Assembly: GCA_041601615.1 (NCBI GenBank)
Contig: JBFIHX010000002.1
Location: 46,026-110,025, forward strand
Length of the DNA stretch: 64,000 nucleotides
Direction of reading: 5' to 3'
DNA from: Thermoplasmatota archaeon
GTDB taxonomy: Archaea > Thermoplasmatota > E2 > JACPAO01 > JAHFTW01
Positions 62,090-62,740 of the stretch are shown here, piece by piece. A program made the position numbers and the translations under genes. The notes under the pieces were generated by a model that saw only the letters and a program-made list of their open reading frames with translations, was not told the origin of the DNA and made no database searches. How positions within the stretch are numbered: the first letter of the stretch is position 1; each line of letters opens with the position of its first letter.

Positions 62090-62326
62090 ATGAACAAGAC
62101 CATCCTCATCAGCGCAATGCTCCTTCTGGCCGCAGTGGCCGTCGCCCCGACCGCCTCCGCCGTTGACCCCTGCAAGGCTTACGGTGCTTGTGTGGACGTT
62201 TCGGAAAGCGGCGTCACCGTGGGCGACTGCCAAACCATCGGTTGCGTTGGTGTATACTGGAGCAGCGGGCAAATCTGCTACGGCGTCAGCTACCAAGTGC
62301 CGCAGTGCACGCCGCCCATCTCGTAA
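62090..62326 (+). CDS. Small secreted 6-Cys peptide, paralog 1 (78 aa)
   Basis: Signal MNKTILISAMLLLAAVAVAPTASA; mature VDPCKAYGAC...; clear homology to 62504..62740. Confidence 0.85.
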   Translation: MNKTILISAMLLLAAVAVAPTASAVDPCKAYGACVDVSESGVTVGDCQTIGCVGVYWSSGQICYGVSYQVPQCTPPIS

Positions 62327-62503
62327 ACGCAGAAGTGCGTATTCTTTTCCACTCTTCCCTATCCGCCTCGCTTGAATTTCAAATGTCAACTCTGATGATT
62401 TTGATAGTGCGCCTTGGGTGCCTATGAAAATGTCCAAGTGCAGGGAGTCCAGTTGCATCATGGTGCGCCCCATCCGGGGCAGCGCAAACTCTCTGGTGAA
62501 ACT

Positions 62504-62740
62504 ATGAACAAGACAACGATCCTCCTATCCGCCGGCCTCTTGCTGGCAGCAAGCCTCGCCATGGTCCCGGCCGCCAGCGCGGTTGATCCCTGCGATGCCT
62601 ACGGTGCATGTGTCACCGTCACCGACAGCGGCGTCTTTGTCGGCGACTGCGACAAACTCGTCTGTGCGGGCGTATGGAACTACGGCGGCGGCGGTTACTA
62701 CTGCGTCGGCATCAGCTACCAAGCGCCCATGTGCACCTAA
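62504..62740 (+). CDS. Small secreted 6-Cys peptide, paralog 2 (78 aa)
   Basis: Signal MNKTTILLSAGLLLAASLAMVPAASA; mature VDPCDAYGAC...; all six Cys align with paralog 1. Confidence 0.85.
   Translation: MNKTTILLSAGLLLAASLAMVPAASAVDPCDAYGACVTVTDSGVFVGDCDKLVCAGVWNYGGGGYYCVGISYQAPMCT

Follow-up and report, generated by a model that had tools for sequence, protein, structure and literature searches.

The window analyzed here is the whole 64,000-nt stretch of DNA from a Thermoplasmatota archaeon, and it carries two short genes, A and B, between a gene for a cytoplasmic orphan protein (p136) and the 3′ part of copA. The features of this locus, in window positions, are as follows.

61542..61952 (+): p136, cytoplasmic orphan protein, 136 aa, adjoining the peptide gene(s) on their upstream side in each of the three archaeal assemblies
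61953..62089 (+): noncoding region upstream of A, 137 nt, with TAGCTAA and AAGGA elements
62090..62326 (+): gene A, 78 aa, with its stop codon at 62324-62326
62090-62161 (+): signal peptide of A, MNKTILISAMLLLAAVAVAPTASA
62162-62323 (+): mature six-Cys domain of A, 54 aa
62327..62503 (+): A–B spacer, 177 nt, 50% G+C, with AT-rich stretches
62504..62740 (+): gene B, 78 aa
62504-62581 (+): signal peptide of B, MNKTTILLSAGLLLAASLAMVPAASA
62582-62737 (+): mature six-Cys domain of B, 52 aa
62805..63998 (−): 3′ part of copA, extending beyond the window and converging on gene B

A and B are tandem paralogs. The sequence-only reading that preceded this analysis had described two adjacent 78-aa ORFs with similar leaders, and we confirmed their relationship by BLASTP (53% identity, E = 8e-21). 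Both N-termini run from MNKT through a hydrophobic core to ASA, and both mature parts begin with VDPC (at 62162 and 62582). The conserved six-Cys scaffold that had been described is likewise present in both proteins, as C-x5-C-x12-C-x4-C-x10-C-x9-C in A and C-x5-C-x12-C-x4-C-x12-C-x9-C in B, as are the blocks AYGAC, SGVxVGDC, and SYQxPxC, which are identical in the two; the long upstream regions of 137 and 177 nt were also found as reported. By inspection, the leaders fit the Sec/signal-peptidase-I type with predicted cleavage after ASA, and a twin arginine, a lipobox Cys, and a class-III pilin motif are all absent from them. The G+C content and GC3 of both genes are like those of the surrounding genome.

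Public gene callers start gene B at TTG 62414, giving a product of 108 aa. The start at ATG 62504, which gives the 78-aa form, appears to be the correct one, supported by the MNKT N-terminus that B then shares with A and with its ortholog in a related locus (L001, described below) and by a GGTGA 8 nt before this ATG. A terminator-like hairpin and T-run at 62327-62350 directly follow the stop codon of A; together with the GGTGA before B, they indicate that A and B are probably transcribed separately, as two transcription units. The corresponding spacer in L001 is 102 nt long and shows no conservation with that of the window. Upstream of A, TAGCTAA lies ∼85 nt before the ATG and is common to L001, and AAGGA closely precedes the start codon; these elements may have a regulatory role.

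A scan with one genome per species found a single related locus, L001, in a Thermoplasmatota MAG, and a third Thermoplasmatota assembly (L004) holds a single B-like copy. The orthologs are as follows.

L001 6001-6234: ortholog of A, 61% mature identity, dN/dS 0.21
L001 6337-6573: ortholog of B, 84% mature identity, dN/dS 0.10
L004 532-765: ortholog of B and only B-like copy in this assembly, 78% mature identity

All six Cys residues are retained in the L001 and L004 orthologs. Between the window and L001, dS is ∼1.4 and saturated, and p136 and the C-terminus of copA had dN/dS of 0.125 and 0.02, respectively, alongside the values for A and B given above. Because orthologs exist in two further assemblies, keep their Cys residues, and show low dN/dS at saturated dS, we conclude with high confidence that A and B are real genes under purifying selection, as the sequence-only reading had maintained. 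Both ORFs are short, which is what chance ORFs or noncoding sequence would give; this explanation has next to no chance of being right and is refuted by the selection data (dN/dS of 0.10–0.21 with Cys residues kept in three genomes and signal peptides intact) and by the homologs present in a library of 1.8 billion proteins. The B type is 78–84% identical in its mature part across the window, L001, and L004, and the A type evolves faster (61%). We infer that B is the conserved, ancestral-type paralog, which keeps the conserved function, and that A is a duplicate under weaker constraint.

The gene order of p136, peptide gene(s), and convergent copA is common to all three archaeal assemblies. L001 carries a third paralog, P0131, at 6726-7058 (+), between its B ortholog and copA. 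P0131, a 110-aa protein, has a signal peptide followed by two modules with the spacing C-x6-C-x12-C-x9-C, both of which end in VCFYxSxQVPTC. It is absent from the window, which has no room for it, since the stop codon of B lies 64 nt from the end of copA. The copy number in this slot therefore varies, being one, two, or three. The A/B sequence was identical in four marine metagenome runs, all of them DNA, which yielded no natural variants for population tests; no RNA run carrying the locus was found. Scans of JGI metagenome contigs with two pattern sets gave no candidate that passed a tblastn check, a scan of IMG/VR viral contigs found no relative of A or B, and tblastn of plasmids and phages gave no A/B match.

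We examined the neighboring genes for a functional partner or an export system. The p136 protein is 64–74% identical across the assemblies, with dN/dS of 0.13–0.19, and has no match in Pfam, NCBIfam, PADLOC, or the PDB; it may be a partner of the peptides or a mere syntenic neighbor. The neighbors are p136, copA, and LysE, and no maturation, transport, or immunity gene adjoins A or B according to Pfam, PADLOC, and the gene calls, which bears out the earlier view of plain Sec export with no adjacent modification, transporter, or immunity gene. The copA product belongs to the Cu-type P1B ATPases: against TIGR01511, with its cut-off of 397 bits, the full-length L001 ortholog reached 588 bits. The copA gene is context and lies outside the A/B unit.

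On the far side of p136, the window encodes a 223-aa acidic protein, secreted or anchored, at 60755-61426 (−), with an HYHHHHY run, numerous N-x-T sequons, and a β-rich domain at its C-terminus. It is 72% identical in L001 and matches no Pfam or NCBIfam family; it may represent a metal-binding glycoprotein encoded close to copA. At 60065-60631 (−) lies a gene for a PEBP/YbhB-family protein with an N-terminal signal/anchor-like segment and a possible lipobox-like VGC, which belongs to the same conserved neighborhood as A and B.

These surroundings raise the possibility that the peptides are extracellular buffers or chaperones for copper, or for metal more generally, that act alongside CopA, the exporter encoded next door, and the secreted His-rich protein encoded nearby. 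The order of p136, peptide, and convergent copA is kept in three assemblies despite saturated dS, the ATPase is of the copper type, each peptide has six Cys residues, and the HYHHHHY protein, itself conserved and secreted, is encoded 0.7 kb upstream. However, copA converges on B, so the genes form no operon, and the three genomes are close relatives (their CopA C-termini are 90–95% identical), so that the shared order may be simple inheritance. The more distant family members described below (P0014, P0015, and the bacterial relatives examined) do not adjoin copper genes. Moreover, the family acquires and loses its Cys residues two at a time, in the manner of disulfides; the peptides lack CxxC, Met-rich, and His-rich motifs; and Pfam and NCBIfam gave no match to HMA, CopZ, CusF, or CopC. 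Mature A contains no Met and mature B one, and His is absent from both. We consider a copper function very unlikely, and the link to copA suggested by the sequence-only reading found no support, given the convergent orientation and its absence from more distant members.

To place A and B in a family, we searched Pfam, NCBIfam, and PADLOC, which gave no family and only noise (such as DUF2016 at E = 0.058, a hemophore, and NHL at E = 0.079). A profile of mature A and B was searched against 1.8 billion representative proteins and returned P0002 and close members, followed by secreted repeat proteins with the pattern G.VC.GFS.[QE].P.C at E values of 3e-6 to 6e-4. Two further sequences from this search, P0005 and P0006, were low-complexity repeat proteins and were discarded as spurious. 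Searching with the bacterial repeat proteins then yielded ∼112 clusters, all annotated as hypothetical and none with a Pfam domain. Each of these proteins contains one to four modules, and the single-module members, at ∼80 aa, are the same size as A and B. NCBI names were available for four of the ∼112 clusters and pointed to Frankiaceae or Mycobacteriales MAGs. The signal peptides of the bacterial members (MRRLV...A.A) are equivalent to those of A and B.

The shared module has ∼45 residues and the consensus ..GGVxVGTxxPGQPLvGA...GxxCxGFSYQVPxC. Its alignment with A and B spans the whole mature domain, comprising a strand, GGVxVG, a loop, an xGA strand, a turn, and the C-x9-C hairpin, and ends in C-x-G-x-S-x-[QE]-x-P-x-C, which reads CYGVSYQVPQC in A, CVGISYQAPMC in B, and CVGFSYQVPFC in the bacterial modules. 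An hhalign comparison of archaeal and bacterial modules gave 97.3% probability and E = 2.6e-11 over 36 columns, a partly circular result because the bacterial set had been recruited by the archaeal profile. An HMM built from the bacterial modules alone, unlike hhalign, provides an independent test. With this HMM, A scored 28–30 bits (E = 2e-7 at 28) over HMM positions 8–50, P0131 scored 34–36 bits, and the L001 paralogs scored 24–36 bits. B scored 16.5–18 bits, a weak match, and the top score among 18,000 shuffled sequences was 21 bits. We ran the HMM over 2,408 stop-to-stop ORFs taken from the window and from the fetched loci; apart from A and B, none of those in the window had an E value below 1. 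We accept archaeal–bacterial homology as established at the level of the family, in which B is individually the weakest member.

The archaeal type is rare. In a collection of 5.8 billion proteins, we found only A, B, their relatives in L001 and L004, and a pair of shorter variants (P0014 and P0015) that start straight at VGDCxKLTCAG. The genes beside these variants, one with a YjbR domain and one for KptA (PTS_2-RNA), are unrelated. Directly upstream of P0015, at L008:40-339 (+), lies a small secreted ORF of 99 aa with eight Cys residues in a different pattern, so that mixed arrays of unrelated Cys-rich secreted genes recur. The window itself holds another secreted six-Cys peptide at 37019-37261 (+), of 80 aa and with the spacing C-x7-C-x4-C-x4-C-x4-C-x16-C. 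The module HMM gave no match to this peptide, which was rejected as a relative of A and B and represents an independent family.

Tandem paralogy characterizes the entire module family. On one actinobacterial contig, at L009:5579-7075 (+), three module-family genes of 121, 200, and 145 aa lie in tandem, flanked by an MGMT-like gene and two UvrD/PD-(D/E)XK helicase–nuclease genes. The gene neighborhoods of the bacterial relatives examined have no common theme. Literature searches with module motif strings and keywords returned no relevant description, and the module family is undescribed, with no model, structure, or paper found. The proposal of a new archaeal family thus survives in part: the profile search that had been suggested recovered archaeal relatives and ∼112 bacterial clusters and matched no characterized family, but the module is not specific to archaea, being present in secreted proteins of Frankiaceae and Mycobacteriales. 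A small secreted disulfide-stabilized module is, as such, of a familiar kind; what is unusual is its cross-domain distribution and the stepwise addition of staples.

The distribution of Cys residues across relatives provides a basis for assigning the disulfides. In the bacterial modules only Cys5 and Cys6 are present, and these two must therefore pair with each other. The P0131 modules lack Cys1 and Cys2 and have, in addition to Cys5 and Cys6, a C-x6-C where A and B have DC-x4-C. In P0014 and P0015, Cys1 and Cys2 are missing together. Since Cys pairs are gained and lost together in this way, the simplest reading of these sequences is that A and B carry three sequential local staples, 1–2, 3–4, and 5–6. 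The first would close the N-terminal turn CxAYGAC; the second, in DCxKLxC, would stand in for the bacterial PGQPL loop; and the third, in CxGxSYQxPxC, would clamp the C-terminal β-hairpin and is the sole pair found throughout the family.

We modeled B with AF2 using a 77-row module alignment, which gave an all-β model of moderate pLDDT (64.7) with five strands (11-14, 17-21, 28-32, 41-44, and 48-51) and with Cys5 and Cys6 at the ends of the last hairpin. A five-row alignment gave a pLDDT of 54.8 and an unusable model. The predicted fold of A and B is accordingly a small five-stranded β meander. The structure prediction and Foldseek comparison that had been proposed therefore delivered a fold model but no structural relative: the best PDB match of the model had E = 1.4, so that no fold is assigned, and in PDB sequence searches with both profiles the best matches were not below E = 0.3.

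The C-terminal hairpin invites comparison with protease inhibitors, in which the rigid Cys5–Cys6 loop CxGxSYQxPxC would serve as a canonical reactive-site loop and the bacterial tandem modules would be multiheaded inhibitors. Kazal and Bowman–Birk inhibitors occur in single- and multimodule architectures, a parallel to the module family. No other element is as well conserved between the two domains of life as this Pro-containing loop with its disulfide closure, and one module has a subthreshold Kunitz match (E = 0.12). Yet no inhibitor family gave a significant match, the A/B locus has no linked protease gene, and in the AF2 model the segment is an ordinary β-hairpin (41-44 and 48-51) whose conservation may be structural. 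We regard inhibition of proteases as highly improbable.

Several subthreshold matches were to propellers: NHL in 3 of the 77 modules (best E = 0.079), an integrin α blade in the PDB sequence search (E = 0.57), and propellers among the weak Foldseek matches (E = 4.6–7). We treat these hints as no more than a lead. Under a speculative reading, A and B would be propeller blade-like units that close, alone or as a hetero-oligomer, into an extracellular ring, as would the bacterial two-, three-, and four-module proteins. The product would be a disulfide-stapled, lectin-like multivalent binder in a hitherto unrecognized family shared by marine Thermoplasmatota and soil Actinomycetota via ancient transfer. 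We consider this combination decidedly unlikely.

We next weighed the defensin- or archaeocin-like role that the sequence-only reading had favored, in which the peptides inhibit competitors and the Cys4–Cys5 loop sets target specificity. A and B are small, secreted tandem paralogs with three predicted disulfides, their archaeal family is rare and patchy, and the Cys4–Cys5 segment is the least conserved part, with 3–7 of its 10–12 residues identical between pairs. The sequence-only reading had taken this pattern as a constant frame around a hypervariable loop and had called for a check of diversifying selection. We found pN/pS of 0.45–0.88 in this segment, below 1 in every pair, although its 10–12 codons are too few for a formal test, and in the wider family the segment is a variable-length turn ending in a conserved Gly. 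Constraint on the loop is thus relaxed, with no sign of diversifying selection. The genes as a whole are under purifying selection in a fixed syntenic slot rather than in a polymorphic island. Moreover, the mature peptides are anionic, with net charges of −3.3 (A) and −4.3 (B) and a pI of 4.05, and no immunity, ABC-transporter, or maturation gene lies nearby. They match neither TIGR04449 (halocin C8) nor any defensin or bacteriocin model in Pfam or NCBIfam, and their homologs are multimodule secreted proteins, an architecture typical of structural or binding modules. Together with the apparent local pairing of Cys residues, these features speak against the defensin/archaeocin analogy. A and B are, we infer, not membrane-active toxins, and an antimicrobial role of any kind appears unlikely.

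We hold with high confidence that A and B are exported and that they belong to the module family described above. For their function, the architecture of the family points to a disulfide-hardened, stand-alone extracellular binding or structural module, a reading to which we give about an even chance. One to four modules behind a signal peptide, often in tandem paralogs, form the pattern of extracellular binding or structural beads. The A/B domain would be the single-module, Cys-enriched form of the ∼45-residue β-module, a bead like those that bacteria string in tandem, and its extra disulfides would give robustness in oxic seawater. At the cell envelope, such a module might bind a ligand or self-associate, a step that we put forward with low certainty.

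The module links orphan secreted miniproteins of an uncultured marine archaeon to ∼100 clusters of secreted repeat proteins in uncultured Frankiales and Mycobacteriales. Across these proteins, robustness would increase stepwise, from one disulfide in the actinobacterial modules through two per module in P0131 to three in A and B. For annotation, at least 120 hypothetical proteins become one family with a testable fold and disulfide map. The locus reveals neither a new antimicrobial class nor a new copper system, and its wider importance is modest.

Comparison with known systems sets the family apart from the better studied small secreted proteins. Halocin C8 (TIGR04449) is, like A and B, a small Cys-rich peptide secreted by an archaeon. 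Its Tat-exported precursor, of 283 aa, also gives rise to the immunity protein HalI, and the halocin gene is flanked by halR and ABC transporters (bioRxiv 10.64898/2026.07.27.741052). In contrast, A and B are made as 78-aa Sec precursors with no twin-arginine motif and have no halR or ABC-transporter neighbors, and an NCBIfam scan at E values up to 1 gave no TIGR04449 match for either.

Defensins and knottins resemble A and B in length (50–55 residues), in their six Cys residues, and in a β-rich fold. However, A and B are anionic whereas defensins are cationic, and they match no Pfam model at E values up to 1. The staples 1–2, 3–4, and 5–6 suggested for A and B would also differ from the defensin and knottin connectivities, 1–4/2–5/3–6 or 1–6/2–4/3–5.

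The chaplins of Streptomyces (PF03777) are similar to the module family in architecture only: they are small secreted actinobacterial proteins with a module of ∼40–45 residues in one or several copies and form paralog families. Chaplins are either short, with one domain, or long, with two; each module has one disulfide (a Cys pair), and the proteins are strongly hydrophobic amyloid formers. PF03777 had no match at E values up to 1 to A, B, the bacterial proteins, or the 77 modules.

The closest counterparts are the secreted repeat proteins of Frankiaceae and Mycobacteriales (for example, P0007, P0009, P0011, and P0057, together with the single-module P0117–P0128), annotated as hypothetical and lacking Pfam domains. 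They belong to another domain of life and to soil rather than marine sand, and their modules, unlike A and B, have one Cys pair, a PGQPL loop instead of DCxKLxC, no CxAYGAC turn, and up to four copies per protein. With A and B they share a signal peptide, an alignment over the ∼45-residue module, an identical C-x9-C staple, and frequent tandem paralogs.
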